From Candidatus Rifleibacteriota bacterium (GTDB lineage Bacteria; Muiribacteriota; Ozemobacteria; Ozemobacterales; Ozemobacteraceae): a DNA stretch of 64,000 bases. The notes under the pieces are model-generated. The model made no database searches, was not told where the DNA came from, and saw only the letters and a list, made by a program, of their open reading frames with translations. Below are positions 11,622 to 53,196 of the stretch, one piece after another (position 1 is the first letter of the stretch; each line of letters opens with the position of its first letter). The stretch is taken from positions 12,124 through 76,123 of the forward strand of contig JBMOKV010000435.1 of the NCBI GenBank assembly GCA_049325495.1, read 5' to 3'. The position numbers and the translations under genes are program-made.

Positions 11622-11635
11622 AATTTCTGTTGCCT

Positions 11636-13787: not shown

Positions 13788-13843
13788 AATTTTGCCGTAA
13801 CTTCTCAGGTTCTTCAATCAAGACCTGTTAAACCATAGATTCA

Positions 13844-13889: not shown

Positions 13890-13949
13890 CTCGGTCCAAC
13901 TCTGTTCTGTTCATTAACCCTCAATCTGTGCTATAAAAATGGCGCAGTT

Positions 13950-15071: not shown

Positions 15072-15108
15072 AATGTCTTGATTAAAACAGGTTCAGGAGT
15101 GACCCCGA

Positions 15109-15993: not shown

Positions 15994-15997
15994 TACG

Positions 15998-18595: not shown

Positions 18596-18631
18596 CGGGT
18601 CGAAGCGACCGGGATACACCGGAAATATTCA

Positions 18632-20594: not shown

Positions 20595-20681
20595 CGCTTT
20601 TTGTCTGCTGAGTATATCGCAAAACCCGGTAATCTGGTATTTTTAATCTGTTAAATCGCAAGTTGAATTAGAGGTTGCCGC

Positions 20682-36732: not shown

Positions 36733-37275
36733 ATGAATCGTTCTAGCAACAGCAACGGTTATGACCAGAATTTTATTGCCCTTCTGCGGCAACAGGATTC
36801 TGCTGCTTTCAAAAAGTTCTTTGACCAGATGGCTGAGGTGGTTTTTCGAAGGTCTTTTGCTTTGTTAGGTGATGAGTCTGCCGCAGAAGATGCGACCCAG
36901 GAAATATTCTACAAAGCCTGGCAGTATCTACCCCGAATTGAGGGGGGTAACCTTAAGGGCTGGATTCTGACCATAGCCAGAAATCACTGCTTCGATGAAA
37001 TTCGCCAGCGCCGCCGTCGCCCGGCGGTTACAAAAGGAAGTTCTGATCTGGTTGAAAAAATTGTTTCTGATAAGACAGCAGTTGAAAGCGATCCGAACGA
37101 GCTGCTTGCTTCTGTTCCAGAAGAAATAAGGGTTCCATTGTTGCTTAAAGTTGTTGAAGGTCTCTCATACAAGGAAATTTCGGAAATGGTCGAGAAATCG
37201 GAAGGTACTTTGAGAAACCTGGTTTGCCGAGGTATGAAGATTCTCAGAAAAGAGCTTGATGAAAATGAGATGTGA
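36733..37275 (+). CDS. ECF-type RNA polymerase sigma-70 factor
   Basis: Sigma region 2 (EIFYKAWQYL...WILTIARNHCFDEIRQ) and region 4 HTH (LSYKEISEMVEKSEGTLRN). Confidence 0.85.
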   Translation: MNRSSNSNGYDQNFIALLRQQDSAAFKKFFDQMAEVVFRRSFALLGDESAAEDATQEIFYKAWQYLPRIEGGNLKGWILTIARNHCFDEIRQRRRRPAVTKGSSDLVEKIVSDKTAVESDPNELLASVPEEIRVPLLLKVVEGLSYKEISEMVEKSEGTLRNLVCRGMKILRKELDENEM

Positions 37276-38146
37276 AGAAGTTAAAAACTGGCTGAACGAA
37301 TGCAATCAGTTTGACGATCTAAAAGGTCTTCCTGCTGATTTAGGCGAACACACCCGTCAGTGCCCGGTGTGCAAAAAACTTGTTCAGGCACAGCTTAAGA
37401 CTATTTCGTCAATTAAAAGATCAGCTTGCTTAAAGGATGAGAGTCGCCGGCGCATTTTCTCAAAACTGCAGACCAGAATTCCGCAAATTCACGACGATGT
37501 TTCTACGTTTTCCTTTATCAAGGTCTGTTTGAGTTTTAAATGGCATTTGGCTTTTGCCCTTATATTTGTCTTGTCATTCTGGTTGGTTTCATCTCTTAAT
37601 CATTCATCTGATTGGAAAATTACTGGTTCCGGAAAAATTCTGGTCAATGAAGAAGAGACAAAACTTGCTGAAAAAGGATTGCCTTTGGAAACTTCTGATC
37701 GATTCGAAATTGTCGGTGGAAGTATTCGTCTGCTTAGGCATGATAGGGAAAAACTGGTTATCGATGGTTCTGCAGGTTTTCTTTTTGACAAAGACAGCCT
37801 GAAAATGTTCAAGGGTTCTGCTGTTATTGCTTTTTCACCGGATGCAAAGGGTTACCGGGTTGAAATGCACAATTCAGTTCTTGAAATTGTTGGAACTGTA
37901 CTTGAACTTTCGGTGGAAAGTGATCACGACCGGATAAAGGTGGTCGAAGGAAAAATCCGCTGGAAAAATTTACGAAATGAGCAATCTGGTTTTCTTGATT
38001 CAAAAAGCTTTGCTTTGAAAATTTTCAATGACAAATTTGAATTGGATACTGCAGTAAAAGAAGAAAACAAGTCCGATTCTGATGATTCAAGCAACTCAGA
38101 GCCTCAGACTACACAGGAAGCTGACCTGCCGCTTGATCAGTTTTGA
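37256..38146 (+). CDS. zinc-finger (HxxxCxxC) anti-sigma factor, single-pass membrane protein
   Basis: Overlaps the sigma gene by 20 bp. N-terminal HTRQCPVCKK ZAS-type motif. TM helix at about aa 95-115. Periplasmic C-domain. Confidence 0.7.
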   Translation: MMKMRCEEVKNWLNECNQFDDLKGLPADLGEHTRQCPVCKKLVQAQLKTISSIKRSACLKDESRRRIFSKLQTRIPQIHDDVSTFSFIKVCLSFKWHLAFALIFVLSFWLVSSLNHSSDWKITGSGKILVNEEETKLAEKGLPLETSDRFEIVGGSIRLLRHDREKLVIDGSAGFLFDKDSLKMFKGSAVIAFSPDAKGYRVEMHNSVLEIVGTVLELSVESDHDRIKVVEGKIRWKNLRNEQSGFLDSKSFALKIFNDKFELDTAVKEENKSDSDDSSNSEPQTTQEADLPLDQF

Positions 38147-41030
38147 TCGGGTTTCCCAGAAACAGAATGGTCATGTCGTCGCTGGCACCGGTATTTTCAA
38201 TCCATTTTTCATATCTGGCCTGCACGTTTTTGTAGTAGATTTCCGGGTCTTCATGCCAGCAGTCGATAAGAAGTTCTTTCAACCCGTCGAAACCAATCAT
38301 TTCTTCATTTGAATTTCGGGCTTCGACGATTCCGTCGGAATAGAGAACGAGAGTTTCGCCAGGTAGAATTTCGAATTCCATCTCGTTCAAGCGATTGTTT
38401 TTGAAAGCACCCAGGGCGGCACCCTGAATTCTCAGCTCGCGAAATCTTTTTTCAGGGCCGTTGACAATCATTACCGGTAACCCGCCGGCATTTGATATTT
38501 TGAGCTTTCCAGTAGTTAAATCCGAGAAAATATACTGGAAGGTCATAACCTTTTTCTGCTTTTTGGTTTTAGCCTCATAAATCAGCTGATGCAATCTCGA
38601 TGCAAGTTTTAATGGCTGATCGAGCAGGTCTTCTGATATGAGGATGGCAGATTTGACCATGGCCATTATCATTGCGGCTCCTACTCCATGCCCCGCCACA
38701 TCGCCAAGTAAAACGGCAAAACCTGTTTTCCCGATGGAAAAATAGTCGAGATAATCTCCACCTAAATCATTCAATGAAACACATTTTCCATACATTTTGA
38801 ATTTGCCCGTGTCAGGCAGTTTTTTGGGAAAAAGCTGCTGTTGGACGATCCCGGCTGCCCCAAGTTCTTCGAGGTCTATTATTGCTTCATTAAGAATTTT
38901 TCCCATGTAGCCGAATTCATCGTTCCCAAGAGAAGGCAGTCTATGACTGAAATCATGTTTTTTAATGGCTAAGGCCGCAGATTCAAGATGTCTGACCGGA
39001 GTTAAAAGATTGTTTGAGAATAAGGTTGCCAGGGCAAAAATTATTAACAGATCGAATAGTATCATCATCAAAAGATAATTTCGCTCGTTTTTTATCACAG
39101 TTCGAATTTCGCTGACCGGAAAAAGCGCGAGTATTCGATGATCAAGAATGATCTTGCTTTGAAAGCCTGTAGTGATCCATTCTTCGCCATTTAAAGAAAT
39201 TATTCCCGCTTCCAGAGGAGGATAATTGCTCAAGCCAAAAATCAATGGTTCAAGCTTTTGCATGTTGCTGAAAGGAAAAATCTCTTCTTCTTTCATTGGC
39301 AGGCCTTTGCCAAAAATTACCTTAAGCCCGAAATTGTTTGCCAGTCGATTGTTTTGTTGTTCGACAATGAATTTTTTTGATTTTTCGGAAGTTTTTATCT
39401 GATAAATCCCAAGGTAATCGGCTTCGTCGTTTGGTGGCACGCTCATTAAGCTGCAGATTGAAGGTTCAGAGTATTTTCCAAAGCCGAAATAGCCAATCTT
39501 GTCTATAATCTCAACTAGCATGTGAAGTGATTCGTCTATAGGTTTTTGAAATGCGATGTCTGAAACCAGCTCAATTTCGGTTAGAGTTTTCTGTGAAATG
39601 GTTGTGTTGTTCCAGAAAGAAATGAAACAGCTGCTTATTTTGCTGACAAGCTCTAGGATTTTTTTTGCATCACGATGACTCTTGTCCTGCACCTGATTAA
39701 AACTTATAAATTGCTTTTTATCCTGAAAGCCGCCATAGGAAAAACAGGGAAATGTTGAACTTGCTATAAAGTAGAAAGCCATTCCTTCATTGTTGAGCCA
39801 ATCAATAAAAGGCTTCGATGATTCAAGATTTATCCCTGTATTTGCAATTTTTTCAAGAAAAATTTCCTGCTGCTTTTTGACTTTTTCCGGGAAACTTTCA
39901 ATTTCATTTTTAAACGTATTTTCAAGCTGCTGGATGAACTGAATTGATTCGATTCTTTTCTGATCGATCAGAGTAAGTCTTTTTTGCTCAAGATACTGAT
40001 GGGAAAGGAATGACAGAATTCCAAGGGGAAGAACATTTGAAAAAGCAATGAAAAGCATGATCAATTTTTTCACTGCAATTGTTCCGGAGAGCTTTTGAAA
40101 AGAAAATTGTTTGAATAGAATCAGGATGAAAAATACATGACAGATTGCGAAAAGGAAAGGAACTTTATTCATCATTCTGCGTGAGCTTTTTTTGGCATAG
40201 ATGAACTCTGAACCATCAGAAAGTCTATTTACAAAAACCACATAATTTCCATTTTCCTGAAATTTTCCGAAACTCATTGGGTTTCTCAAATTTTGGTCGC
40301 TGATTAGTGATTCAGGAAACCGACTCATTGAATAAAACCGTCCATTAGTGGCAATTGCCCACGATTCTCCTGGCAAACCTGCTTTATCTATTCGAGTTAG
40401 AAATTCATCTTTTCCAAAATGTCTATTCAGGCTTTCGGGGTGAATCAAAATCAGAACAGAAAGAGCTGGTTTTTGATGAAACCAGATAGATGCATAATTA
40501 TTAAGAAAGTCAGTTTTTAAAAAGTGCTTTGAGTAATAAGAAATTTTGCTTAATTTAAGGTGAGGCCCAAGAACCTTACGCAGTTCAAATTCTTGACGAT
40601 AATCATCGGAACTGATTTTTCCATCAATTTTTCCTGTCAGTATTTTTCCAATTCTTTGCCAGTTGTGGTTTTGATATCTCTGGAGATTGTTACTGAGAAA
40701 AACTTCTTTTTGTGGTTCCCAGATGACAATACCAATATTCAAATTGAAATTTGAAGAAATTTCGTTGGCCTTTTGAGTGAAATCTTTGCCGTCTTTTGCT
40801 TCGTTTAAGGCATTCTTGAACTTTGTCGCCAGGAAAGAACTGACTTCAAGGAAATTAGAAGATTCTTTCAGCCAGGGAGAAATGCGATTGAACGTTTTTA
40901 TGTTTTCAAGTTCGATTGAGTTTTGTCGAAAGAAAGAAAAGGCGAAATTGAAAAACAATACTGGGGTAAAAAAGAAGATGATGAAGCCGGCGATGCTTCG
41001 GTAAAATTTCTGCAGGTCATGAGATTTCAT
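38109..41030 (-). CDS. membrane sensor - HAMP - PP2C (SpoIIE/RsbU-type) serine phosphatase
   Basis: 973 aa. N-terminal TM helix, a large extracytoplasmic region, and a second TM helix. HAMP (LTPVRHLESAALAIKKHDFSHRLP...NDEFGYMGKILNEAIIDLEE). PP2C motifs GDVAGHGVGAAM, NAGG and LYSDGIVE. Confidence 0.85.
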   Translation of the reverse strand: MKSHDLQKFYRSIAGFIIFFFTPVLFFNFAFSFFRQNSIELENIKTFNRISPWLKESSNFLEVSSFLATKFKNALNEAKDGKDFTQKANEISSNFNLNIGIVIWEPQKEVFLSNNLQRYQNHNWQRIGKILTGKIDGKISSDDYRQEFELRKVLGPHLKLSKISYYSKHFLKTDFLNNYASIWFHQKPALSVLILIHPESLNRHFGKDEFLTRIDKAGLPGESWAIATNGRFYSMSRFPESLISDQNLRNPMSFGKFQENGNYVVFVNRLSDGSEFIYAKKSSRRMMNKVPFLFAICHVFFILILFKQFSFQKLSGTIAVKKLIMLFIAFSNVLPLGILSFLSHQYLEQKRLTLIDQKRIESIQFIQQLENTFKNEIESFPEKVKKQQEIFLEKIANTGINLESSKPFIDWLNNEGMAFYFIASSTFPCFSYGGFQDKKQFISFNQVQDKSHRDAKKILELVSKISSCFISFWNNTTISQKTLTEIELVSDIAFQKPIDESLHMLVEIIDKIGYFGFGKYSEPSICSLMSVPPNDEADYLGIYQIKTSEKSKKFIVEQQNNRLANNFGLKVIFGKGLPMKEEEIFPFSNMQKLEPLIFGLSNYPPLEAGIISLNGEEWITTGFQSKIILDHRILALFPVSEIRTVIKNERNYLLMMILFDLLIIFALATLFSNNLLTPVRHLESAALAIKKHDFSHRLPSLGNDEFGYMGKILNEAIIDLEELGAAGIVQQQLFPKKLPDTGKFKMYGKCVSLNDLGGDYLDYFSIGKTGFAVLLGDVAGHGVGAAMIMAMVKSAILISEDLLDQPLKLASRLHQLIYEAKTKKQKKVMTFQYIFSDLTTGKLKISNAGGLPVMIVNGPEKRFRELRIQGAALGAFKNNRLNEMEFEILPGETLVLYSDGIVEARNSNEEMIGFDGLKELLIDCWHEDPEIYYKNVQARYEKWIENTGASDDMTILFLGNPIKTDQAAGQLPV

Positions 41031-43929
41031 TTGAATTTTTTCTCCTGACCATTACCATTGTAATATCGTCATCCTGTTCATGGCGCCAGTTTTCATAATG
41101 GGAAAAAATCTTTGAATAAAATGCTTCCAGGTCGTGGTCAAAAGATTGCTTGATCATCTTCATAAAAGCATCCAGACCCAGCATTTCATTACTGAAATTA
41201 CGGCTTTCAAAAATTCCGTCAGTAAACATCATGAGTGTTGAGCCAACGTCAAAATTAAGTCGGGTCACCTCAAAATCACGAGTTTTCGAATAGCCGAGAG
41301 GAAAAGTTTCCTGCAGTGGATTTTCAATCTCTTTGCCGTCTGGAGAAATCAGGAAAGGTGAACAGTGCCCTGCATTGATAAAATCGACCGTACCCTCCTT
41401 CAGGTCAAAGCAGAAAATTGAACAGGTTATCATGGTTCTTATGCCACTGCGCCTGATTTTATAAAATGCTTCGTTGATTCTGGCCATTATACCTGCAGGA
41501 TCTGAAGTTTCATGACGGGCCAGATTGAAGGCCGATTTCGCCATGGCCATAAAAAGCCCTGCCTGAACTCCGTGACCGGCAACATCTGCAATCATGGCGA
41601 TCAGGCGCCCATCTTCAGTAATGAAATACTCATAGTAGTCACCACCAAGTTTAGTCATTGCCACGCTTTTTCCAAAAACTTCAAAACCTGGGGCAGAATA
41701 TCGATTATCTTCTGGTAGAAGGGATTCCTGAACAACCTGAGCAATGGCAAACTCCTGAAGATTTTCCAGTGTTTGATTGAAAGTTTCGGTCAGTCTGGCT
41801 AATTCATTATTGCCATTAACCGGCATTCGGTAGGAAAATTGACTGCGCCTTATTTTCTCAACACCGGTAATTAGAATTTTTATGGGAGAAATCAATTCCT
41901 GGTTCAGTAGTATGAAAAGGCCCAGCGAAAACAATATGGATGCTGAAATAGCTACCAACAACCCATTCTCAAGATTCCGTAAATCATTTTGAATGGAACT
42001 CGTTTTAACCCGAGTGCAGATTATCGCTTTGGCAATTTTCATACAGCTTTTTCCGACTATGAGGAATTCTTCAGCATTATCCGAAAAAAGCTCTGCGTGG
42101 TTCCCGTTGGCGGATACTCTACTAAAAAAATCATTTAAGCGCCAGTCTGGAATTTTACCGTCTGAGTAAGACCCGGTTTCTGGAAAAAACATCATGACTT
42201 CGTTTTCAAGGGAGGTTTTTGGATCATTAAAATTTTCGTGAAACATATTCTGAAACCTGTTGGTATCCCAGAATAGCTGAATGAGATAGGGAAATTTTCT
42301 TGTTCTTGGGTCGAGCATGGCCAGAGAGTAGGTATAATAAACGCTTTGCCCCACTATTTCATGCCTGATTCTGGTGTTTGCGCTTTCGAATGATGAGATT
42401 GCGCTGATTGTAAGAATTTTGGGAGCCTCCATGGCCCTGAGTTCATCACCATTCAAATGCTTGAGTATTGCTTCGGAAACTGGTTTTAAAAAGGTGACTT
42501 CAGTTGCTGGATCCTGATAGTCTGGCAGACAAGTGCTTCCAGTCTTATCTGCAATATACATTCCGACAAGATTAAAATCAATTTTGATTTTCAGCATGAA
42601 ATCTTTGAGAGATTTTTTCTTTGCGTCCTTCTTCTCGTTCTGCCAGAACTCTTTTTCCATAATTTCTGTAAGCTTGGCACCTGTTGAATCCTTGAAAATT
42701 TCAAAATTCTGCTCATAGCGATCTAGAAATGCGAGAATCTCTGCTGTTTTTTCAGTCTGCAGTCTGGTTTTTTTCTGAGAAAAATACTCATAACCCGCAA
42801 CAGAAAAGATTGCAAGTGGCAGCAGCACTGTATAGACAAAAATGAAGTTAAGCTTCCAGCTGATCAGGCTAAAAGGATTGTGGTGAACAAGAAAGAAGCA
42901 GTGAAATATGAAAAGTAAAATTAGCAAAGCGGCAGCCAGACGGTAAACAATTTTTTGTGAAGTATGGGTTTTCGGTGTCCTTGAAGTTATTGCTGTGGCC
43001 CACCATTTACCGTGAAGCTTGCGAAAAGAATAAAAGAAATTCTGATCGAACAGCATTTCATCTGGAGTCATGTTTATCGATTTTTTCAAATTCAATGCAA
43101 TTTTCCTTTGAAGCGGGCTTTTAACTGACGGAAAAGTCTTTAGACTGTTTTCATCAAGAAGTGCAAATTTTGTTGTGCGATTGCTCTTAAAAGATCTTAA
43201 ACACATGGATTTCGCTCCTGCCATCGAGTTTACCGCTTTGTGGGAGATGTAAGCCATAATTGAAAATGCTTCAAAGTCTCGATACCAGCCATAGGCGCGT
43301 TTGCCATGTCCGTGCATCTGAAAACAGCCGGCTATGGGTGAAGGAATCATCGCTTTGGCTAGAGCTGATGATGGAATAAAGGGGCCAAGGAGTTGACGAA
43401 AATTGCGTATCTGTTTTTTTATTGAACTTGAAAGGTGAGGCTGATCGGGGAAACTTTCTTTTGTTAATTTAAAAATTTCTTTTAAAAAAGCGTTGAGCTT
43501 TTTGCGAAAGAACAAAAAGTCGGTGTTGTCAGAAAGCTCTTTAAGCAGATCACCTTCACTATTCCAGACGATGAATTCAAATGTGTCAGGAAATTTTTTC
43601 TTTAAAACGCCAATTTTTTTGGAAAGCTCAGAAGTTACACTTTTTTTTTCGGAACTGGCAATTGATTCAAAAGATTGTTTTAAAACTCTATCGAAGTATC
43701 TGGAGCCATCGGCGTGATTTTTCAGTCGGGTAAGAGTCCTGTCGATTCCTGATCTAAGCTTTTCGGTAATTTTTCTCTCTTTTTGTTCGAAATAGCTTTC
43801 AAGAGTAAGGTTCAGCAGAAAAAGAGGTACGACCAGAAAACACAGAAAATTTACCAGAACCCTGGTAAATTTTGAAATTTTCTGGTCGTTGAATCTAATC
43901 ATTTTTGGAAAAGGCAGATTGGGCAACAA
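41017..43929 (-). CDS. membrane sensor - HAMP - PP2C (SpoIIE/RsbU-type) serine phosphatase, paralogue of the downstream gene
   Basis: 970 aa with the same architecture. PP2C motifs ADVAGHGVQAGLFM, NAGH and FTDGIFE. Overlaps the downstream paralogue by 14 bp. Confidence 0.85.
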   Translation of the reverse strand: MLPNLPFPKMIRFNDQKISKFTRVLVNFLCFLVVPLFLLNLTLESYFEQKERKITEKLRSGIDRTLTRLKNHADGSRYFDRVLKQSFESIASSEKKSVTSELSKKIGVLKKKFPDTFEFIVWNSEGDLLKELSDNTDFLFFRKKLNAFLKEIFKLTKESFPDQPHLSSSIKKQIRNFRQLLGPFIPSSALAKAMIPSPIAGCFQMHGHGKRAYGWYRDFEAFSIMAYISHKAVNSMAGAKSMCLRSFKSNRTTKFALLDENSLKTFPSVKSPLQRKIALNLKKSINMTPDEMLFDQNFFYSFRKLHGKWWATAITSRTPKTHTSQKIVYRLAAALLILLFIFHCFFLVHHNPFSLISWKLNFIFVYTVLLPLAIFSVAGYEYFSQKKTRLQTEKTAEILAFLDRYEQNFEIFKDSTGAKLTEIMEKEFWQNEKKDAKKKSLKDFMLKIKIDFNLVGMYIADKTGSTCLPDYQDPATEVTFLKPVSEAILKHLNGDELRAMEAPKILTISAISSFESANTRIRHEIVGQSVYYTYSLAMLDPRTRKFPYLIQLFWDTNRFQNMFHENFNDPKTSLENEVMMFFPETGSYSDGKIPDWRLNDFFSRVSANGNHAELFSDNAEEFLIVGKSCMKIAKAIICTRVKTSSIQNDLRNLENGLLVAISASILFSLGLFILLNQELISPIKILITGVEKIRRSQFSYRMPVNGNNELARLTETFNQTLENLQEFAIAQVVQESLLPEDNRYSAPGFEVFGKSVAMTKLGGDYYEYFITEDGRLIAMIADVAGHGVQAGLFMAMAKSAFNLARHETSDPAGIMARINEAFYKIRRSGIRTMITCSIFCFDLKEGTVDFINAGHCSPFLISPDGKEIENPLQETFPLGYSKTRDFEVTRLNFDVGSTLMMFTDGIFESRNFSNEMLGLDAFMKMIKQSFDHDLEAFYSKIFSHYENWRHEQDDDITMVMVRRKNSNEIS

Positions 43930-43964
43930 AACTGCCCAATCTGCCTGACTTTATAAATCATTTC

Positions 43965-45767: not shown

Positions 45768-45832
45768 GATCTAACCTCCTGAAAACTCTTTTCAATTTCT
45801 ATAACGTCAAAACCAGGGAAAATGTAATTTTT

Positions 45833-46543
45833 TTATTTTGGCCGATGATAACTCCTGTACTGCCAGGAATTATAATTTATAGAATCGGCGACAAACGTGC
45901 TTGACAGGCTGGTTGTCAATTCGAGTGGTTTACCGAAAGAACTGTCTTTGTATTTATTCTGGTCGAGGGTCATCTTGACCCAGATAAGGGGAAGGGCTGT
46001 ATTGGTCTGGTAAACAAAAGCAGAAAAGGAAAAGTCTTTGAAGCCGTCGAAAGTTGTGGTGTTGCTTCCTGCTTTGCGAATAAGTTTGCCCGAACTCTGG
46101 TCGAAAGTGTATTCGATTTCCTCAACCTCTGGCTTAGGGTTTTCGCTGAAGCCGGAGACCGAATATTTGAAAAAGGCGAGCTGGTTTGGTGTAACCCTGA
46201 TTTTTCTATTGGCACCCACATATTTGGCATCGATTTTCGAAATGGCAAAAGGTTTTAAAACGAAGTTTTTCAGCTCAGCCAGGCCATCGCGGCTGTCAAC
46301 GTAAGGACATGCCATGCTGTAGTCGCGGCGCAGCTGGTTGATTGCCATGTGCGCTTCCCTGAAATTTTCAAGTTCGATGAAACTGTGTTTGTATTTGAAA
46401 GCCATGTTTCCTGTAAAGCTCGATATCATGTAAAAAACCAGGCTGATAATCAAGGTTCCTACAACTGCTTCGATAAGGGTTATGCCATTTTTTTCCAGAC
46501 AGAATTTTCTCACGGCTGTGACCTCCAGTCGGTGATAAGGCAT
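45833..46543 (-). CDS. prepilin-type N-terminal cleavage/methylation domain protein (pseudopilin)
   Basis: Class-III signal KNG|ITLIEAVVGTLIISLVFY with Glu at position +5. Confidence 0.75.
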   Translation of the reverse strand: MPYHRLEVTAVRKFCLEKNGITLIEAVVGTLIISLVFYMISSFTGNMAFKYKHSFIELENFREAHMAINQLRRDYSMACPYVDSRDGLAELKNFVLKPFAISKIDAKYVGANRKIRVTPNQLAFFKYSVSGFSENPKPEVEEIEYTFDQSSGKLIRKAGSNTTTFDGFKDFSFSAFVYQTNTALPLIWVKMTLDQNKYKDSSFGKPLELTTSLSSTFVADSINYNSWQYRSYHRPK

Positions 46544-47073
46544 GCCATAACCACTTTTCTTGTCTTACTGTTCAAATCATGAATATTTTTCACTGATCTT
46601 CCATCATCCCAATAGATCGTCACTACTACTTTTTTCAGCAGCCCCGAATAGGAGGTTCCGCTTAAATCACCAACCTCGACGGTTCGATAGAAAAATGATG
46701 GATTGTATTGTTCTGAATAAGTCAGTTTATCTGCGAGGATGTCTTTGTAATAGGGATTGTCGCCGGTCATGACCGGTGCCGGGGCAAAATCTGGTTTCTC
46801 TATTAGAATGCTTCCGGAAAGTCCCTCTGCTTTCATCTTAAAATCAGTATCTACAGGAATGAGCCTTACATAGTCTATTGCTTCGTTGGCGAGTTCAACT
46901 GCCCTGAGATAGCTTATGCTCTTTACCGTATCGGTCTGTACGCCTGACATCGACATATAAACAGGGATTGCCATTATTGCAAAAACAGTTACCGCAACAA
47001 CAATTTCGGCAAATGAAACACCACGCCGGAAAAATTTGATTCCAGTAATTATTTTAAATAATAATTTAATCAT
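46510..47073 (-). CDS. prepilin-type N-terminal cleavage/methylation domain protein (pseudopilin)
   Basis: Class-III signal RRG|VSFAEIVVAVTVFAI with Glu at position +5. Overlaps the downstream pseudopilin gene. Confidence 0.75.
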   Translation of the reverse strand: MIKLLFKIITGIKFFRRGVSFAEIVVAVTVFAIMAIPVYMSMSGVQTDTVKSISYLRAVELANEAIDYVRLIPVDTDFKMKAEGLSGSILIEKPDFAPAPVMTGDNPYYKDILADKLTYSEQYNPSFFYRTVEVGDLSGTSYSGLLKKVVVTIYWDDGRSVKNIHDLNSKTRKVVMACLITDWRSQP

Positions 47074-49238
47074 TTGTATTCAATCTCCAGTCGGATATTT
47101 TCCTGGCCGGATGGAAGTTCTTCAGCTTTTGGTCCGTATTCTTCCAGAAGTTCCTGGTGCTGTTGCTGCTTTTCTTCGATGGTCATGACCTTGAAGAGAT
47201 CGGTTGCCGGGGTGGCGAGATCAGGCGGCTGAAAGTCCCATGGTCTTTCTGCTTTGATGTCGGCGGGGACATCGCTGCTATTGCCAACACTGTATGAAAA
47301 AACCGTCTTTTCTACCGGTGCCTCGGTCTTTTTGCCCTCGGTGTAATCTTTGACCCTGAATTTGAAAACAAATAAAATGCCGCCGATTATTAGAATTGCT
47401 ATGAGAATCAGGCTGAAAAGCTTGCTCTGAAGCAATTCTCCAAAGGTAAGATCCTGGCTTTCATAGCTGATCTTTTTAATCGACCCGAGAATGTCTTCCC
47501 ACTGTTCACCCAGTCCTTCACTGATTGCCGCGCCCGAATCGGGTTTGCCTTTTTCACCAAGCTCGGTTTTGATTTTTTCGGCAAGTTGATTCAACAGATT
47601 GCGCCGTTCGGTCGGCAGTTTTTCGCTTATTTGTCTGAGCTTGTGAATTGTTAAAGTGTCGGGGTTCAAAACGAGAATCGAACCGTAAAATTTTATCGTT
47701 TCCGAATTACTGCTGGTTTTGAACAGGCCAAGAATCATGTCTCTGGCTTTGAGGAATTCAATCTGCATCAGCCCTTTATAAGCGGCATGACGAATTTCAG
47801 GTCGCCCATCTTTTATCCAGGTTTTAAGCTTGTCCATGAACTTATCAGGAAATTCTTTGTTGAAAATGCTTACGGCCGAATCGGCAATTTTCTGGTGCTC
47901 AGAAAAAGCCAGCAGAGGCAGGTGTGGCAGCAGTCGGTTTTTGTTTACCCTCGCAAGAGCATCGATACACGCTACAACCACCGTCGAAGACTGTTTATCT
48001 ACCAGACCCTCAAGCCAGTTGGAGGCTTCCGGCGACTTCAACTGCTTTTCTGAAATCAGCCTTATTGCCGAGAGCTTTTCTTCGTCAGTAGAAAGTTTTG
48101 CCAGCAGTTCAAAAAAGTTCTTTTCATCTGAACTGGAGAAGGTTTTTGCCGTAAGAAACTTTTCGAGCTCTTTATTGGTCGTTTTTTCTGGAGAAATGGC
48201 CGGAGTTGTTTCTTCTTCAGTTAACTTGTGGGATGAATGATCCTGGATGAATTTTCGGGCTTCTTCAAGAGCAAGTCGCTTAAGTTCTTCTTCAGGCTTA
48301 TCAGTTAACTTGCTGATCAGCAGTGATTTGGCCGCAGTTTCCCAATAGGTTTTCAATCGGGCAATTCTTCTTCCATGCAGCAGGTAAGAAATGCTGATTC
48401 TTCTGAAAAAATTGAAATCAGGGTTGTTGTAAATAAGATACGAAATTACCAGATCGATGTTCTGCGGCAGATCAGCCCCTTCAATCAGGCGCAGCACGAT
48501 GTCGCCCGTATCGCTGAACGGCAGAAGAAAGAGAAAGGAAAAGGCCGACCTGCGATTTGTCACGTCTGCCGAAAACATCAGTTCATTGAGCAGTCTTATC
48601 GCTTCTGCGGGGGCAAGAAGATGAAGTGCTTTGATTGCCAGGAGTCTTATCTGAAGATTCTCGTGAACCAGAAGTCGAGGCAGGTGCTTGATCAAAAGAG
48701 TCGGTTTGAGCCGGGTTAAAATTGATATGGCTCTGATCAGAAGTAGTGTGTGGTTGGTCGCCAGAAGTTTTTCGATCCAGGGAAGTACCTGGTCTTTTGC
48801 CAGAACCCTGCGGCTGAGCGAAAGAATCGGCATTATCTGCCCGGCATTCTTAACTCTTGAAAAAATGGAGCAGATAACCTGAACCTGCTCATCTACACCC
48901 ATTTTCTTCAATTGTCTGCTGAGTCTTTGCAGCTGAACCGCATCAGAGATGCACCACTGTTCGATTATCTGATCTGCAGACACCGTCGTTGCCGGTTCTT
49001 TGTCTGCCTCAGGAGCTTCGATAAGTTTTAATACTTCGTCAAGGTCAGCTTTGCAGCCGGTATTGTCTTCTATTTCAAATCTTTTTTTGAGCCCATCGAT
49101 AACCGTTGGGTTGTCGGTAAAATTTTGCAGCTGCGAAATGGCGTATTGCCGTGAGAAGGGGTCGGTGGAATTCAGCTCTTCGAGCAGCAGCTTGATCTGA
49201 AAATCCTGAAGTGAGGTTGATTCTATTGCATTGCTCAT
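47070..49238 (-). CDS. HEAT/ARM-repeat-like protein with a C-terminal TM helix and short extracytoplasmic tail
   Basis: 722 aa. Repetitive helical N-terminal roughly 590 aa. TM helix LFSLILIAILIIGGILFVF. 4-bp overlaps with both neighbouring genes. Confidence 0.55.
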   Translation of the reverse strand: MSNAIESTSLQDFQIKLLLEELNSTDPFSRQYAISQLQNFTDNPTVIDGLKKRFEIEDNTGCKADLDEVLKLIEAPEADKEPATTVSADQIIEQWCISDAVQLQRLSRQLKKMGVDEQVQVICSIFSRVKNAGQIMPILSLSRRVLAKDQVLPWIEKLLATNHTLLLIRAISILTRLKPTLLIKHLPRLLVHENLQIRLLAIKALHLLAPAEAIRLLNELMFSADVTNRRSAFSFLFLLPFSDTGDIVLRLIEGADLPQNIDLVISYLIYNNPDFNFFRRISISYLLHGRRIARLKTYWETAAKSLLISKLTDKPEEELKRLALEEARKFIQDHSSHKLTEEETTPAISPEKTTNKELEKFLTAKTFSSSDEKNFFELLAKLSTDEEKLSAIRLISEKQLKSPEASNWLEGLVDKQSSTVVVACIDALARVNKNRLLPHLPLLAFSEHQKIADSAVSIFNKEFPDKFMDKLKTWIKDGRPEIRHAAYKGLMQIEFLKARDMILGLFKTSSNSETIKFYGSILVLNPDTLTIHKLRQISEKLPTERRNLLNQLAEKIKTELGEKGKPDSGAAISEGLGEQWEDILGSIKKISYESQDLTFGELLQSKLFSLILIAILIIGGILFVFKFRVKDYTEGKKTEAPVEKTVFSYSVGNSSDVPADIKAERPWDFQPPDLATPATDLFKVMTIEEKQQQHQELLEEYGPKAEELPSGQENIRLEIEYK

Positions 49239-51427
49239 TTTAACACCCGATTATCATAATCAGTGCTGACCGAGAAAATCGTGCGAATTTTTCCGATGGT
49301 GGCCCATTTCTGGTAAACGGGAGAAAAAAGAAAGGGGTCATGGATAATTTTCAGGCTTTTTCCAGCGGGAATGCCGTAGCTGCCGTCATTTAGAAACAGA
49401 TAATCGACCGCCAGATTCCCGAAAATTTCAACTTCGTGGTTTTTGGCAACCAGTTTGCCGCGGTTGCTCAGTGCGCTTCGACTTCTTTTCACATCTGAAA
49501 AGTAAGTTAAGGCGATCAAAGAAGCGGAAATTTTGACTGCAGGCTTGGGGCTTTTGATTATGAAACTGCCATCCTGAGCAAAAAGCTTCAAAATATCGGA
49601 GGGTTTGGATTTCGCCAGGTCGCCGAGAAGAATGTCCCCACGAAAGCCAAGCCATATCATGCCCTGCCCGGAAAAGGAAGAAAATTTGCTCAGGTCGAGA
49701 TCTCCCTTTTCAATGAACATCAGACCATCCACATCCAGTCTTTTATCACCGTTGGCAAGGGTAATTGTGCGGTCTTTCAAAAACTCCTCTGGATTCGGGT
49801 ACCTGTATGAAACGCTGTCATTGTTTACATAGGGGTAGTAATCATCGGGTTTGTTTACCCCGTCGGGAGTCAGCTTTATGTCGCCGAAAAACATTGAATT
49901 TACCGGAACTTCCTCAACTTCGCGGCTCATAAGATTGTACTCAATTCCGTGAACTTTGACTTCTTTGTTGAGAAAATTCTGGGCCTGGCTTCCCGGGTTC
50001 TGGAAATGCAGGGGGATTGAAGGCATGCCGAAATCTTTCGATTGCCCGCCAAGTGTGATTGTTGCCGTAAACTCATCAAAAAATGCAAGCTTGAAAAAAC
50101 GAAAGAATACGTTGCCTTCCAGGATTACCGGCACATTACGATCAGGGCCGAAAAACTGGGCCATTTTGCCGGCTACCATTTTGTCGGGATGAAAAGTCTC
50201 CATGAATTTTAAATATTCACTTAAACCGGTAAATTGCAGAGTTCTGGCAAATTCTGACCAGTTGTTACCACTCCAGAGGCTAATGGCATCAGTGTAGGCA
50301 TACAGGTATTTCCACTTTTCAACGCTGGTTGCAACAACCATTTTAAATACCTCAGAATCGGCATAGCGCCCGCCGCAACGTTTCCAGTCATCCAGAATCA
50401 GTCCAGGAACCGAATATTCCTCAGCTTTTGTTTTCTGAGAAGTTTCGACGAAAGTCTTGTAGTAGCCATCCTGCAGAACTTTTACTGAGTAAAAATCACT
50501 GTCGCTGAAGCCCGCTCTGTCAAATATTGGTTTGAATTGCATAGGCATTGGCACTGACCAGAAAACATTGCCTTTGCTGGCATCTCTGGCCTTGCTGTTG
50601 TCGGAAGGAACCTCGATTGCGCCGAGTGGAATTTTTTCGAGCTTATTGTTCAATACAAGAGGAACCAGCTCTTTATCGTCTTTCATGTTGATATCGAGAT
50701 GTATCGCCGGAGGCTCATTGAATCTTGCAAAAGCCGGATATCTGGGAGCATACCGTGAACCGAGGAAAATGCTTGAACACACCTTGGGTCGCAGGCCTTC
50801 GATGATCAGTTGCCTGCTGATGCTGTTATAGTCGAAAGAGTAGTCCTTAACAAAAAGCACATAACGGTCTAGCATGTCCCGGGTGTCGATTATTTTGAAA
50901 TCACGGCGTTCTTTTATTTCAACGATGTCTTTTCGGTTGCTGGTCGAATATGCCTGAGTGATGACCTCGATGTGTCCTGAAAAGGCAGCGGGTGATGATC
51001 TTAAGGAACTGGTAAAATACAGTCGGCACTGGCCTTTGACTTTTGCCTGGCCACCGGTGATTTCACCGGCAAGCTGGTTGGCAAACGGCAGATCGGTTTC
51101 GTTAAAGATCCTTTCATTGCTGAAAGTTTTCTTTGGTGGTACTTCTGCCGGGTTTTGCGAAAAAACATCGTTGATCAGGTTGTAGAAACTGTTCTGGGCG
51201 GCCTTGCTGCCGGGATTGTTGCTTTCTTTTCTGGCAATTGACCATATTTCCCCCGCCGCGCTCTGGGCTATAACCGTTAATCGGCTTTGCTGGGTAGTTT
51301 TCGACAACAGATTGACTGCTCCGGATCTATATCTTGAAAGGGAAAAGGAAATGATACCCCACATCGTCAGCAGTGTCAGAACCAGATATAGAATGTAACC
51401 GGACTTTTTCGCTTTTAAATCAAACAT
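49235..51427 (-). CDS. large membrane-anchored protein (N-terminal pseudopilin-like hydrophobic segment lacking Glu+5, GspK-like?)
   Basis: 730 aa. N-terminal KKSG-YILYLVLTLLTMWGI. The remainder has no recognisable motif. Confidence 0.5.
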   Translation of the reverse strand: MFDLKAKKSGYILYLVLTLLTMWGIISFSLSRYRSGAVNLLSKTTQQSRLTVIAQSAAGEIWSIARKESNNPGSKAAQNSFYNLINDVFSQNPAEVPPKKTFSNERIFNETDLPFANQLAGEITGGQAKVKGQCRLYFTSSLRSSPAAFSGHIEVITQAYSTSNRKDIVEIKERRDFKIIDTRDMLDRYVLFVKDYSFDYNSISRQLIIEGLRPKVCSSIFLGSRYAPRYPAFARFNEPPAIHLDINMKDDKELVPLVLNNKLEKIPLGAIEVPSDNSKARDASKGNVFWSVPMPMQFKPIFDRAGFSDSDFYSVKVLQDGYYKTFVETSQKTKAEEYSVPGLILDDWKRCGGRYADSEVFKMVVATSVEKWKYLYAYTDAISLWSGNNWSEFARTLQFTGLSEYLKFMETFHPDKMVAGKMAQFFGPDRNVPVILEGNVFFRFFKLAFFDEFTATITLGGQSKDFGMPSIPLHFQNPGSQAQNFLNKEVKVHGIEYNLMSREVEEVPVNSMFFGDIKLTPDGVNKPDDYYPYVNNDSVSYRYPNPEEFLKDRTITLANGDKRLDVDGLMFIEKGDLDLSKFSSFSGQGMIWLGFRGDILLGDLAKSKPSDILKLFAQDGSFIIKSPKPAVKISASLIALTYFSDVKRSRSALSNRGKLVAKNHEVEIFGNLAVDYLFLNDGSYGIPAGKSLKIIHDPFLFSPVYQKWATIGKIRTIFSVSTDYDNRVLK

Positions 51428-51439
51428 TACCGCTTTTTT

Positions 51440-51820
51440 TCAAGAATTTATAAGAGTAAGAGCTGCGTCAACATTTTCACATTCTTTCACGTATTTGAGA
51501 ACACCAACCCCCGACATTCCAAGCCTGCAGCTTGATGGAATGGCACAGAAATAAAATTTTATCCTGTCGTTTCCCATACTTTCTGAAATCATTTCAACCA
51601 TCACGCCAAGTGCGGTTGAATTGATCAGGGTCATTTTGTCAAAATTGAAAACGAAATTGCAGAAATCTTCATCGAGTTTCTCGAAAAATTTTTCAAGAAC
51701 TCCTTCCATTAACTTAATTTCTGCATAACCACTAACATCTGCAAAAAAAATCCCATTTTCAAATTTGTATTCTACATTACCGGACATGTGAAAACCCCAT
51801 TTATTTAATTCCCAGCTCAC
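51440..51820 (-). CDS. STAS-domain anti-sigma-factor antagonist (SpoIIAA/RsbV-like)
   Basis: FNFDKMTLINSTALGVMVEM matches the SpoIIAA phospho-Ser loop. CAIPSSCRLGMSGVGVLK matches the CAISPAVKRLFDMSGL block. The start is probably the internal Met 11 codons downstream of the first ATG. Confidence 0.75.
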   Translation of the reverse strand: MSWELNKWGFHMSGNVEYKFENGIFFADVSGYAEIKLMEGVLEKFFEKLDEDFCNFVFNFDKMTLINSTALGVMVEMISESMGNDRIKFYFCAIPSSCRLGMSGVGVLKYVKECENVDAALTLINS

Positions 51821-51911
51821 GCTGATCGAGAACTTCGTCCCATTTGTATTCTTTCGAGAGCTTCAGGGCTTTGTAAAAGCCACGGAATTTTTTATATTCA
51901 TCTTTATTCGG

Positions 51912-53099
51912 CTAGACCAGGCTGATGGTGCCATTGCGGGTCAGGCGGGCATTGATTACCGCATCGTAAAGCTCTTTGCCCATCTGCTTGATTACTGCAG
52001 CATTAGTTGCACCGTTCAGTTTCGAGTCTTCGCGGGCGAAGGCATTGGCAACTTTTAGCAGATCCCAGTATCGGTCTTTTCCGCCGAAAGAGCTGACAGA
52101 ACCAAGTCCGAACGATTTGCCGGTTTCGTTCATCGCGTTGAGAAGCTGCATTGCCAGATTGTTGAGGGCAAAAGCAATCTGCTGAGAATCGCTCAGGCGC
52201 CAGGCACCAATGCGGCTGTCGTTGAGATCTTCAGCCATTTTTTTCGCAAATTCTTCGGGGCTGACCATGCCGTTGCGTGACAGCATGCGGCTCATCGCTT
52301 CGTAAGCAAACCCGTTGATTGGAGTGGTTTCAGGGCTGCCAACCATATAAGTGCAGGCGTCTTTCAGTTCAAACAGAACTTCGATTGAGCCGGGCATGCA
52401 GGCATCGAAGCCGACCAGGTCGATTTTCTGATTATTGCGAACATTGAAGGTTTCAAGTACTTTAGCTACCTCAAAAACCGTCAGAGCATCATTGTCGGTG
52501 GTGTCATAAGCAACGAAACGGCCGCTGTTACTGACTGCATTTTGAAAGGTGCTGCTGTGTGAGCCGAGAACCCGGTTCAAAATTTTATTGCGGCGAGTTT
52601 CAGCGGCACGGTCCGGGTTGAAAATTACTTCACCGGGATTACTGCTGCTGGTTGAGCCGGTTCCTGACCAGGTGAAAACGCCACTGCCATGACTGTTGAT
52701 TATCAGCGCATAATGATTGGCCGGATGTTTCTGACGGGCCCATTCAAGGCATTCCCATAGAGTGTGCGGGTCGCCCATGTTTTTTTCACCAAGAGCACCT
52801 TCGTCGACAATTTTGTCTTTTTCGATGCGCAGGCGGCTTGCGCCTTTGTAATTCAGTTTCTGCTCATCTGAAGAACCGTCTGCCATGCCATCCATCTGCA
52901 CGATGATTTCAGCATTGGGGCCGGCTCCGTAATATTTCATCCGCGAAAGATTTTTAAAATTCGCCTGTTCGAGCGCGTCGCCAGATTTTCCATCGTTGAC
53001 CATATAAATGATTACGGTCCATTCGTTTTTGGCAAGAAGATCGGCCGGTGCCGCAAAAACAATGAGAAGAACCAGAACTGACAGAATCGCCTTTTTCAT
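51912..53099 (-). CDS. secreted clan-CD cysteine peptidase (clostripain-like C11 family)
   Basis: Signal peptide. His-Gly (LIINSHGSG) and Asp-Ala-Cys (LVGFDACMPG) catalytic dyad motifs. Confidence 0.55.
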   Translation of the reverse strand: MKKAILSVLVLLIVFAAPADLLAKNEWTVIIYMVNDGKSGDALEQANFKNLSRMKYYGAGPNAEIIVQMDGMADGSSDEQKLNYKGASRLRIEKDKIVDEGALGEKNMGDPHTLWECLEWARQKHPANHYALIINSHGSGVFTWSGTGSTSSSNPGEVIFNPDRAAETRRNKILNRVLGSHSSTFQNAVSNSGRFVAYDTTDNDALTVFEVAKVLETFNVRNNQKIDLVGFDACMPGSIEVLFELKDACTYMVGSPETTPINGFAYEAMSRMLSRNGMVSPEEFAKKMAEDLNDSRIGAWRLSDSQQIAFALNNLAMQLLNAMNETGKSFGLGSVSSFGGKDRYWDLLKVANAFAREDSKLNGATNAAVIKQMGKELYDAVINARLTRNGTISLV

Positions 53100-53196
53100 A
53101 TTACTTCCTTGGCAATGAAGATAAAAAATTATACCACAGTAATTTTCAGCTTATAGCATTTCAATGTACAATATGCCCGTCATGAACGGTCAAAGA

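Follow-up and report, generated by a model that had tools for sequence, protein, structure and literature searches.

A Riflebacteria-specific minor-pilin cassette with attached phospho-signalling genes, a probable priming and tip set for a type IV filament

What is made by a gene array in which pilin-like proteins are encoded next to phosphatases, a STAS protein and a secreted protease? An earlier note on this DNA had taken the array for an undescribed combination of genes and for an uncharacterised candidate surface or secretion system. Our data do not bear this out, because the core of the array is a known minor-pilin set with a ComZ/GspK-like large subunit (BIG) and a GspJ-like subunit (pp236), and no new secretion machine is revealed by it. 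The array is probably, though by no means certainly, a Riflebacteria-specific priming and tip cassette of the GspI/J/K type that serves a shared type IV filament machine and has phospho-signalling genes attached.

The nine consecutive minus-strand genes that had been reported are all present in the window (the whole 64-kb stretch of DNA, from a Candidatus Riflebacteria MAG, that was analysed), at 38109-53099 and with exactly matching coordinates, and the domain calls made for them (PP2C, HEAT, STAS, C11 and pilins) were all upheld by Pfam, profile and motif analysis. The listing had overlooked, however, a convergent pair of genes for an ECF sigma factor and an anti-sigma factor, overlapping the array at its 3' end. 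The features are:

36733-37275, plus strand: ECF sigma factor with Sigma70_r2 and r4_2, convergent with the array
37256-38146, plus strand: putative anti-sigma factor, a membrane protein (from sequence and TM prediction)
38109-41030, minus strand: PP2C_a, sensor HAMP-PP2C phosphatase, 973 aa
41017-43929, minus strand: PP2C_b, membrane sensor HAMP-PP2C phosphatase, 970 aa
43965-45767, minus strand: GZ, coiled-coil/Gly-zipper protein with a Sec signal, 600 aa
45833-46543, minus strand: pp236, GspJ/PilW-like minor pilin, 236 aa (226 aa from the GTG at 46513)
46510-47073, minus strand: pp187, prepilin-type minor pilin in the GspI position, 187 aa
47070-49238, minus strand: HEAT722, bitopic HEAT-repeat protein, 722 aa
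49235-51427, minus strand: BIG, large minor pilin, 730 aa
51440-51787, minus strand: STAS protein of the SpoIIAA/RsbV class (115 aa from the ATG; the reading frame reaches a GTG at 51820)
51912-53099, minus strand: C11 protease, secreted clostripain-family cysteine protease (51801-53099 including the stretch past a TAG)
53128-53136, minus strand: extended -10-like element TGGTATAAT, as read from the sequence, some 30 nt before the C11 start

PP2C_a and PP2C_b overlap by 14 bp and are followed by gaps of 35 bp (PP2C_b/GZ) and 65 bp (GZ/pp236); pp236 overlaps pp187 by 34 bp, or by only 4 bp if the GTG start of the NCBI annotation (P0124) is taken, pp187/HEAT722 and HEAT722/BIG each overlap by 4 bp, and gaps of 12 bp (BIG/STAS) and 91 bp (STAS/C11) complete the series. 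The 91-bp gap noted earlier exists in this assembly, but it is due to an in-frame TAG (51912-51914) that shortens the C11 protein from 432 to 395 aa and is absent from an independent assembly of the same organism (Logan assembly L001), in which a single-base difference gives TGG and the 432-aa protein ends 13 bp ahead of the STAS ATG. On the opposite strand, the anti-sigma gene shares 20 bp with the ECF gene and 38 bp with the end of PP2C_a. Consensus scans for sigma-70 promoters and terminators remained at chance level and therefore give no support for co-transcription, while a scan for ECF-type promoters (GAAC-N15-18-CGT) was at or below chance and yielded none upstream of the array. The element TGGTATAAT is a possible promoter of the array, being a consensus match in a scan that overall performed at chance. 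Rfam and tRNA scans of the window yielded a tRNA-Gly gene (3959-4031) as the sole feature.

The character of the array is most apparent from its three pilins. BIG had been listed as a 730-aa N-terminally anchored protein; the reading frame is real, but its AlphaFold model (pLDDT 86) points to a tip pilin and thereby to more than an anchored protein, with a 61-residue pilin helix, a pilin beta-sheet and a C-terminal beta-solenoid. The best PDB match of this model is ComZ, the tip pilin of Thermus, followed by ice-binding beta-solenoids and GspK. The N-terminus of BIG (KKSG|YILYL) is devoid of Glu5, as are all BIG proteins of the cassette loci (57/57), and GspK likewise has no Glu5. Judged by its model, BIG is a ComZ/GspK-like tip pilin that combines a pilin-fold base with an extra head domain and the loss of Glu5; the cluster names of its distant relatives carry no annotation.

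Both pseudopilins with class III signals were confirmed: pp236 (KNG|ITLIE) and pp187 (RRG|VSFAE) each possess the G|xxxxE motif followed by a hydrophobic helix, although their single-sequence scores against the short Pfam N_methyl model (PF07963) are below the cut-off of 21.2 bits (14.5 and 15.7 bits). Among cassette pilins, the signal is kept together with Glu5 in 52/52 members of the pp236 family and 55/61 of the pp187 family. The profile of pp236 matches the PilA N-terminus (E 7e-5), T2SS GspJ proteins are the best structural matches of its model, and by that model the protein has a GspJ/PilW-type fold. For pp187, the profile matches pilin N-termini weakly (E 0.04) and NCBIfam gspI at its N-terminus only (E 0.089), and its placement as a putative GspI-type subunit draws only on size, gene position and prepilin signal. 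A major pilin is not encoded in the array. From the ComZ/GspK-like BIG and the GspJ-like pp236 we therefore regard the core as a minor-pilin priming and tip set, and such a set depends on a type IV filament machine whose genes lie elsewhere.

A five-gene core of GZ, BIG, a TM protein and two pilins recurs at 65 loci, with three to four paralogous copies per Riflebacteria genome, and the array is one of these Riflebacteria-specific minor-pilin cassettes. The order of all nine genes is fully kept in the closest relative (L069), in which the 730-aa protein is 69% identical, and the six genes from STAS to GZ still follow one another in the same order in relatives with 57-64% identity. The grouping proposed earlier thus stands the comparison of neighbourhoods, as homologues co-localise in conserved order and do not represent a chance juxtaposition. 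Conservation of both giant PP2Cs and of the C11 protease is restricted to the closest relative, i.e. to about genus level, and C11 lies beside STAS in L069 only; distant orthologous loci possess a second pseudopilin set in place of the PP2Cs and C11. The parallel cassettes adjoin different regulators, namely STAS/PP2C, an ECF sigma pair, a diguanylate cyclase, or flagellar genes.

Two further members of the array are helper proteins. HEAT722 (Pfam HEAT_2, 5.5e-15) is predicted to have a cytoplasmic HEAT domain, about 600 aa long, that is joined through a TM helix (607-625) to roughly 97 aa of outside tail; the gene order at the 65 loci puts it where other cassette types encode a 100-155-aa N-terminally anchored protein. 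The equivalence of the two is supported by topology and gene position only, for the tail yielded no homology to the small TM proteins of other cassettes, and a jackhmmer search with HEATc gave seven matches, all of them orthologues. GZ combines a conserved core (about 290 aa) of amphipathic, Gly-rich heptad helices with a Ser/Thr-rich tail of about 300 aa that is specific to this genome, the L069 orthologue comprising only 332 aa. Almost all cassettes contain a member of its family, placed upstream of BIG or else behind the second pilin, and the family profile shows similarity to designed alpha-helical-barrel coiled coils (E 2e-18). Pfam DUF6944 matches 10/25 family members, and a homologue search with the GZ alignment was dominated by low-complexity words (three matches).

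The signalling genes present a more fragmentary picture. As a single sequence the STAS protein scores 20.9 bits against Pfam STAS (cut-off 22.6), whereas its family profile (A5) matches SpoIIAA (1th8) over the full length with E 4.8e-6, and the invariant Ser57 (INS57TALG) aligns with Ser58 of SpoIIAA; by this alignment it is a SpoIIAA-like protein with a conserved, presumptive phospho-acceptor serine. Both phosphatases match Pfam SpoIIE (PF07228; PP2C_a 4.7e-35, PP2C_b 1.9e-45) and HAMP (1.5e-6 and 4.7e-9), and their L069 orthologues are 44% and 43% identical, respectively. PP2C_b is predicted to have four TM helices and two outside loops of about 300 aa, followed by HAMP and PP2C, in which the metal-binding catalytic motifs DVAGHG, TDG and DDIT are present. 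The two phosphatases are paralogous in their HAMP-PP2C part only (BLASTP, 28% identity), with unrelated sensor regions.

Partner switching of the RsbU-RsbV-RsbW or SpoIIE-SpoIIAA-SpoIIAB type has several non-sigma outputs, such as Bordetella BtrU/V/W, Vibrio SypA/SypE and Pseudomonas HsbA/HsbR, and the array had been credited with an RsbU/RsbV module of this type. A SpoIIAA-like STAS protein and SpoIIE PP2Cs are indeed present, but no HATPase_c-type protein, and hence no RsbW/SpoIIAB-type kinase, was found among the 40 scanned ORFs of the window, nor an RsbW-type kinase in the Pfam-annotated loci L069, L002 and L003. The module is incomplete because this kinase was not found; the STAS and PP2C genes constitute a candidate partner switch. 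The C11 protease matches Peptidase_C11 (PF03415) with 9.8e-33 and has a predicted His137/Cys234 dyad in the motifs SHGSG and DACMP. The putative anti-sigma factor possesses an N-terminal Cys/His motif, one predicted TM helix and an outside domain; it has no Pfam match and is grouped by jackhmmer with a FecR-annotated 207-aa protein of L008 and L069.

The limited conservation of these genes raises the question whether the unit is the five-gene pilin cassette only, with the PP2Cs, the ECF/anti-sigma pair, C11 and possibly STAS as unrelated neighbours. The PP2C pair and C11 are absent from orthologous loci at 57-64% identity, the G+C content of the PP2C region is low (0.39 vs 0.44-0.50), and the missing kinase agrees with such a reading. 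An apparent PP2C link in another paralogue type also dissolved: the proteins that a first iterative PP2C_b profile placed beside about 28 cassettes are HAMP-GAF-GGDEF cyclases according to Pfam and had been matched via HAMP, and a search with the catalytic domain only located SpoIIE near type-A cassettes and L003 only. On the other hand, the STAS gene is present in 8/8 loci of the type-A cassette and in 0/60 others (Fisher 1e-10), and SpoIIE PP2C genes are enriched near type A (3/8 vs 1/60 loci), where they occur in every locus that extends far enough (L001, L069, L007, L008). ECF/anti-sigma pairs are enriched as well and flank several paralogue types (ECF at 18/68, anti-sigma at 21/68 loci), CHASE2-SpoIIE and FecR-type anti-sigma recur in L007, L008, L069 and L003, and the genes from STAS through PP2C_a are tightly spaced or overlapping. 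We hold it to be unlikely, if still worth weighing, that these genes are bystanders.

A different objection concerns the kind of fibre. The cassette might form the tip of a T2SS pseudopilus that selects and expels exoproteins such as the adjacent C11 protease, instead of belonging to a surface pilus. It is consistent with this that T2SS GspJ proteins match pp236 best and GspK is among the matches of BIG, that C11 proteases are also found near other pseudopilin sets (L046, L062), and that some annotation pipelines call cassette proteins T2SS proteins. However, T2SS and type IV pilus minor pilins are inseparable by fold alone, the best match of BIG is the pilus tip pilin ComZ, its head, about 500 aa with a beta-solenoid, is of a kind usual in pilus tip adhesins or plugs and not in GspK, and C11 adjoins the cassette in 2/8 orthologous loci only. 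We therefore rate a T2SS pseudopilus tip as rather unlikely. A competence pilus tip like Thermus ComZ-PilA2-PilA3, in which the beta-solenoid would bind DNA for uptake, is very improbable given a sequence identity of only 11% between the two proteins, three or four cassettes per genome whose different regulators argue for diverse ligands, and no comEA, comEC or dprA seen in the window or its flanks.

As the earlier note had stated, no assembly ATPase, platform protein or secretin lies nearby, and this was upheld for the 64-kb window and 10 kb past its left end. An ATPase of the PilB/GspE type (GPTGSGKT Walker A) was found neither in the window nor within 10 kb at 68 loci, and neither a prepilin peptidase nor a PilB/GspE-PilC/GspF machine in the window, in L070 or in the 10-kb surroundings of 65 cassettes. 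A complete T2SS or type IV pilus locus was rejected as a description of the array, there being no ATPase, platform or secretin domains beside the pilins. Searches of the literature on Riflebacteria, Ozemobacter and Rifleibacterium yielded no relevant report of pili or of a type IV machine. A filament machine in Riflebacteria genomes is thus assumed here, none having been found at the loci examined. Minor-pilin operons apart from the machine genes are common, as in Pseudomonas (fimU-pilE) and in the Myxococcus clusters, and to our knowledge GspJ and GspK/ComZ folds are confined to fibres built by machines of the PilB/GspE type. It is most improbable that the nine genes constitute an undescribed surface or secretion system complete in itself, driven by a partner switch and independent of a classical type IV machine. 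In favour of such a system, no machine gene is close to any of the 65 cassettes, Pfam has no family for BIG, GZ or the small TM protein (three of the five core families), and novel families are unusually numerous in Riflebacteria (PMC10849945). Against it, the prepilin signals of the pilins are standard and their folds are those of GspJ and GspK/ComZ, the cassette products include no energy source, and separate minor-pilin operons of this kind occur elsewhere.

If the array is a priming and tip cassette for a shared machine, a prepilin peptidase would cleave the three pilins, which would assemble into a GspI-J-K-like complex. This complex would prime a type IV filament, be it a type IV pilus or a type II secretion pseudopilus, and would finish at the tip of the fibre, where the beta-solenoid of BIG may be exposed as a domain that binds a ligand or acts as a plug. 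The genes for the ATPase, platform and secretin would lie elsewhere and be common to the paralogous cassettes, each of which would supply a different fibre tip. The PP2Cs may sense envelope signals and dephosphorylate the STAS protein, which could then act on a partner and determine the timing of production or use of the tip set.

The type-A group is distinguished by two linked novelties, a HEAT domain fused to the bitopic protein and an adjacent SpoIIAA-type STAS gene, with membrane sensor PP2Cs and an ECF/anti-sigma pair in the vicinity. Because the STAS gene and the HEAT fusion occur only together, and in this paralogue group only, one may speculate that dephosphorylated STAS binds the HEAT domain of HEAT722 and gates the entry of the priming complex to the shared machine upon envelope signals sensed by the PP2Cs. 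We regard this extension as quite improbable in its specifics; if true, it would add a new output class to partner switching and a new control of pilus identity, in which a pilus tip is chosen by post-translational phospho-signalling. The strict co-occurrence of STAS, HEAT and cassette provides in any case a testable candidate for a non-sigma output.

In sum, the minor-pilin core is of a known kind, in a version found only in Riflebacteria, with helper proteins and a phospho-signalling module attached. Riflebacteria have been reported to carry the highest load of unknown gene families (PMC10849945), and several hypothetical families confined to them are here given a role based on fold. Three or four parallel cassettes also fit the emerging view that alternative priming complexes re-tool a single filament machine.

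Comparison with known systems places the array among minor-pilin sets. The four-gene Verru_Chthon cassette of Verrucomicrobia (TIGR02596-TIGR02600) is likewise lineage-specific and multi-copy and encodes proteins with N-methylation motifs, one of them very large; it was rejected as a relative, since pp236 scores 15.6 bits against TIGR02599 (cut-off 256.5) at the N-terminus only and BIG has no NCBIfam match. With Rsb/SpoIIA partner switching the array shares a SpoIIAA-like STAS protein with a putative phospho-acceptor serine and sensor-bearing SpoIIE PP2Cs, whereas the window encodes no serine kinase/anti-sigma partner and the nearby sigma factor is of the ECF type, with a membrane anti-sigma factor. 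The T2SS GspI-GspJ-GspK complex (PDB 3ci0, 5vtm, 2ret) resembles it in the Glu5 of the two small subunits, missing in the large one, in the GspJ fold of pp236 and in the GspK-like N-terminal domain of BIG. In contrast to T2SS, the array has no GspG, GspH or other gsp gene nearby, its order is K-x-I-J and not I-J-K, and the head of BIG is a beta-solenoid where GspK has an alpha-helical insert.

Myxococcus xanthus possesses three minor-pilin/PilY1 clusters, and such alternative sets are like the array in that several paralogous priming sets per genome are separately regulated. Cyanobacterial alternative minor-pilin sets with a beta-solenoid PilX prime specialised pili, and the PilX-type subunit has been proposed as a tip plug (bioRxiv 10.64898/2026.02.12.705559). 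Compared to these, the array belongs to a different phylum and to different sequence families, and GZ, the HEAT-TM protein and the STAS/PP2C link are undescribed there. Thermus thermophilus PilA2-PilA3-ComZ (PDB 6qvi, TTHA1218/1219) shares with the array a large tip pilin that joins a GspK-like domain to a beta-solenoid of the ice-binding type, encoded beside minor pilins of the GspI and GspJ types, apart from the assembly machine. Relative to ComZ (about 11% identity), BIG has an extra middle alpha/beta domain, and DNA binding is putative here; relative to the Thermus locus, the array adds a bitopic TM/HEAT protein, a secreted coiled-coil protein and several paralogous copies per genome.

Our data show that two prepilins, one of them with a GspJ fold, and a large ComZ/GspK-type pilin lacking Glu5 are encoded by the nine-gene array on the minus strand (38109-53099), together with conserved accessory proteins of the membrane and secreted kinds. 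The window belongs to a MAG of Candidatus Riflebacteria (P0001, 100% identity). ORF calling returned the nine ORFs at exactly the positions of the earlier note, and profile searches against Pfam and NCBIfam confirmed all of its domain calls. Its description of tight spacing, with gaps of 65 and 91 bp, likewise stands, and the 91-bp gap is the effect of a stop codon.

Features of the array and its 3' border (junctions are with the next gene listed)
36733-38146, plus: ECF sigma/anti-sigma pair, convergent with the array and overlapping its 3' end; absent from the earlier note
38109-41030, minus: PP2C_a, giant sensor phosphatase, HAMP+SpoIIE (PP2C; Pfam, E 5e-35); 14-bp overlap
41017-43929, minus: PP2C_b, likewise (E 2e-45); 35-bp gap
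43965-45767, minus: GZ, 600-aa Sec-signal glycine-zipper protein, no Pfam or NCBIfam match; 65-bp gap
45833-46543, minus: pp236, small prepilin, weak N_methyl match (Pfam/NCBIfam); 34-bp overlap, 4 bp from NCBI's GTG start (P0124)
46510-47073, minus: pp187, small prepilin, weak N_methyl match (Pfam/NCBIfam); 4-bp overlap
47070-49238, minus: HEAT722, 722-aa HEAT-TM protein, HEAT_2 match (Pfam); 4-bp overlap
49235-51427, minus: BIG, 730-aa protein, no Pfam or NCBIfam match; 12-bp gap
51440-51820, minus: STAS protein, weak single-sequence STAS match (Pfam/NCBIfam); 91-bp gap
51912-53099, minus: C11 protease, Peptidase_C11 (Pfam, E 1e-32)

An in-frame TAG (51912-51914, minus strand) cuts the C11 protease to 395 aa and thereby creates the 91-bp gap. 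A Logan assembly of the same organism (L001) equals the window over 18,745 bp bar one base, which gives TGG for TAG; with TGG the protease has 432 aa and ends 13 bp before the STAS ATG. Either the TAG is an error of sequencing or consensus, or it is a nonsense polymorphism at strain level. C11 proteases also lie near other pseudopilin sets (L046, L062), and the array is bracketed by two peptidases of the S9 prolyl-oligopeptidase family (34649-36574, plus; 53197-55218, minus). Consensus promoter and terminator scans stayed at chance level, so that an operon is at most plausible. Upstream of the C11 protease gene lies only an extended -10-like element, TGGTATAAT, and a search for ECF-promoter motifs was negative.

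Both small pilins carry canonical prepilin signals, RRG/VSFAE in pp187 (motif in 55/61 family members) and KNG/ITLIE in pp236 (52/52). Compared with pilin N-termini, the family profile of pp236 is significant (E 7e-5) and that of pp187 weak (E 0.04); the putative "GspI-like" assignment of pp187 rests on size, signal and gene position. In BIG a glycine is followed by a hydrophobic helix, and Glu5 occurs in 0/57 family members, its absence being a known hallmark of GspK-type subunits. The pilin domain of BIG is related to GspK and its solenoid to an ice-binding protein, the same pair that was given for ComZ by authors who argued that a protein of such build can sit only at the fibre tip (PMC6561018). 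Close homologues of BIG number only 19, and an exhaustive HMM scan that covered 1.84 billion cluster representatives yielded 90 homologues; the cluster names of the distant relatives carry no annotation. GTDB genomes contain BIG at 65 loci, essentially all in Riflebacteria/Ozemobacteraceae and with several paralogues per genome.

When the families of the window were traced by iterative HMMs across 68 loci (1.09 Mb), an invariant five-gene core emerged: GZ, BIG, a one-TM protein of 100-155 aa with an N-terminal helix, a first and a second pilin. The neighbourhood is thus conserved, a point on which the earlier note had made its proposal depend: the core genes are co-localised across loci, and the closest relative, L069 (BIG 69% identical), retains all nine genes in the same order. 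GZ either precedes BIG or follows the second pilin, and its family combines a Sec signal with a conserved core of ~290 aa composed of Gly-rich amphipathic heptads (LxxIGxx-type in the family alignment). The GZ profile matches de novo designed alpha-helical-barrel coiled coils (8qad sc-apCC-6, E 2e-18; CC-Type2; CC-Hept), Pfam DUF6944 is matched in 10/25 members, and the sequence hints at a helical barrel or bundle; a homologue search with the GZ alignment was dominated by low-complexity matches. The Ser/Thr-rich C-terminal tail of GZ (~300 aa) is missing in the L069 orthologue (332 aa).

HEAT722 takes the place of the small TM protein in type A, the orthologue group to which the window itself belongs (the window, L069 and L004-L009). 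The predicted topology of HEAT722, ~600 aa of cytoplasmic HEAT repeats, a TM helix at 607-625 and an outside tail of ~97 aa, is that of the small protein plus a cytoplasmic domain; the tail and the small TM proteins share no detectable sequence homology. Identities with L069 are 81% for the protease, 78% for STAS, 73-77% for the pilins, 53% for the HEAT protein, 60% for GZ (core only, without the Ser/Thr tail) and 43-44% for the two PP2Cs, which are far more diverged than the adjoining genes (53-81%). The PP2C genes (region 38001-44000) also have a distinctly lower G+C, 0.385-0.399, compared with mostly 0.44-0.52 elsewhere in the window. Upstream, synteny with L069 continues through the S9 peptidase (53197-55218), DUF3806 (55218-55643), acetate kinase and a methyltransferase. 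Orthologous loci at 57-64% identity retain only STAS, BIG, HEAT, both pilins and GZ, followed by a second, unrelated pseudopilin set (HEAT of ~300 aa, two pilins, 596-aa GspK-like protein) and then by a FecR-type anti-sigma, an ECF sigma and a CHASE2-SpoIIE protein.

Other cassette types differ in their surroundings. In three genomes (L017, L019, L021; ~8600-13900 each) one lies amid flagellar basal-body genes (FlgI-, FlgH-, FlgA- and FlgG-like ORFs) and comprises a GZ of 424 aa, a BIG of 723 aa, a 155-aa protein and two pilins. Another (L026, 2368-9842; BIG ~800 aa; equivalents in L030, L032, L034, L039, L041, L047, L049, L050, L065 and L066) always has before it, on the opposite strand, a 460-aa protein without assignment, a phosphonate-type periplasmic binding protein, a HAMP-GAF-GGDEF diguanylate cyclase, Dus, a cNMP-binding MCP-signal protein and a zinc-ribbon protein; after it comes a HEAT protein of ~620 aa with a TM anchor. 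The arrangement may correspond to the synapomorphic context of Riflebacteria that PMC10849945 mentions near mcp. Further unrelated pseudopilin sets of Riflebacteria (L005 17791-21588; L008 2403-5940 and 17173-19462; L046 13649-17613) each combine two small prepilins with a protein of 596-700 aa whose N-terminus is GspK/PilX-like; they often lie directly beside BIG cassettes, sometimes with their own HEAT protein of ~300 aa.

Conserved synteny links a SpoIIAA-class STAS protein and sensor PP2Cs to the type-A cassette. The profile of the STAS family matches SpoIIAA from end to end (E 4.8e-6), with the invariant Ser57 falling on the phospho-acceptor Ser58 of SpoIIAA. STAS is present in 8/8 type-A loci vs 0/60 others (Fisher 1e-10) and thus co-occurs with the HEAT fusion. 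True SpoIIE phosphatases were found only near type-A cassettes and at L003 (3/8 vs 1/60), and in every type-A locus of sufficient reach (the window, L069, L007, L008); an association of PP2Cs with another paralogue type was rejected as a HAMP artefact. PP2C_a and PP2C_b retain their catalytic motifs, are paralogous in the HAMP-PP2C part only (28% identity) and are each predicted to cross the membrane with four TM helices, between which lie two outside loops of ~250-310 aa. Of the partner-switching module that the earlier note had recognised, the phosphatases and a STAS protein with its phospho-acceptor serine are borne out, but the module is incomplete, because neither the window nor the Pfam-annotated relatives yielded an RsbW/SpoIIAB-type kinase. 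ECF sigma factors occur in 18 and anti-sigma factors in 21 of the 68 loci, flanking several cassette types; the pair precedes the cassette in L011, L018, L046 and L056.

By analogy with the minor pilins of T2SS and T4P, prepilin peptidase would cleave the three pilins, which would form a priming complex on the PilC/GspF platform and finish at the fibre tip with the beta-solenoid exposed. Paralogous cassettes would supply one machine with alternative tips, as is known for the minor-pilin clusters of Myxococcus. The same has been proposed for cyanobacterial PilX-containing sets (bioRxiv 10.64898/2026.02.12.705559). More tentatively, the PP2Cs would sense envelope signals and dephosphorylate STAS, which would then control production or use of this cassette; since STAS and the cytoplasmic HEAT domain appear together, the latter is a candidate STAS target.

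Elsewhere in the window, a 1093-aa ORF and an overlapping 272-aa ORF without Pfam match (23354-27443, minus) adjoin an RND-type efflux operon (OEP 28218-29717, 1027-aa pump, HlyD 32794-33999, MarR 34003-34494). At the left end (45-1214; with L070 560-9472) stands the C-terminal portion of an HSP70-DUF3731 protein of 917 aa; further upstream come another HSP70/MreB-like paralogue, a DUF2760 protein with coiled coil, a Ser/Thr protein kinase and an FHA-GAF-GGDEF protein. The cluster at 7551-22619 probably serves to modify surface polysaccharide or the cell wall; it comprises a B12-binding radical SAM enzyme, two paralogous asparagine synthases, a group-1 glycosyltransferase, a D-Ala-D-Ala dipeptidase and several ORFs that match nothing in Pfam.

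Fold and signal-peptide features place the core in the minor-pilin core complex of type IV filaments, and the combination that had first seemed unrecognisable proves to be a familiar module. A complete T2SS or T4P locus was rejected: as the earlier note had observed, the window has no assembly ATPase, platform or secretin, and none lies in the 10 kb to its left. A PilB/GspE-type Walker A motif is present in 0/68 loci, so that the cassettes always stand apart from any assembly machine. A Verru_Chthon cassette was rejected by NCBIfam comparison, and a search for literature on Riflebacteria pili found nothing. New are the sequence families, which are restricted to Riflebacteria, the pair of accessory proteins that is constant, the presence of several cassettes per genome and the STAS/PP2C/HEAT association; the regulatory coupling and the accessory proteins are undescribed.
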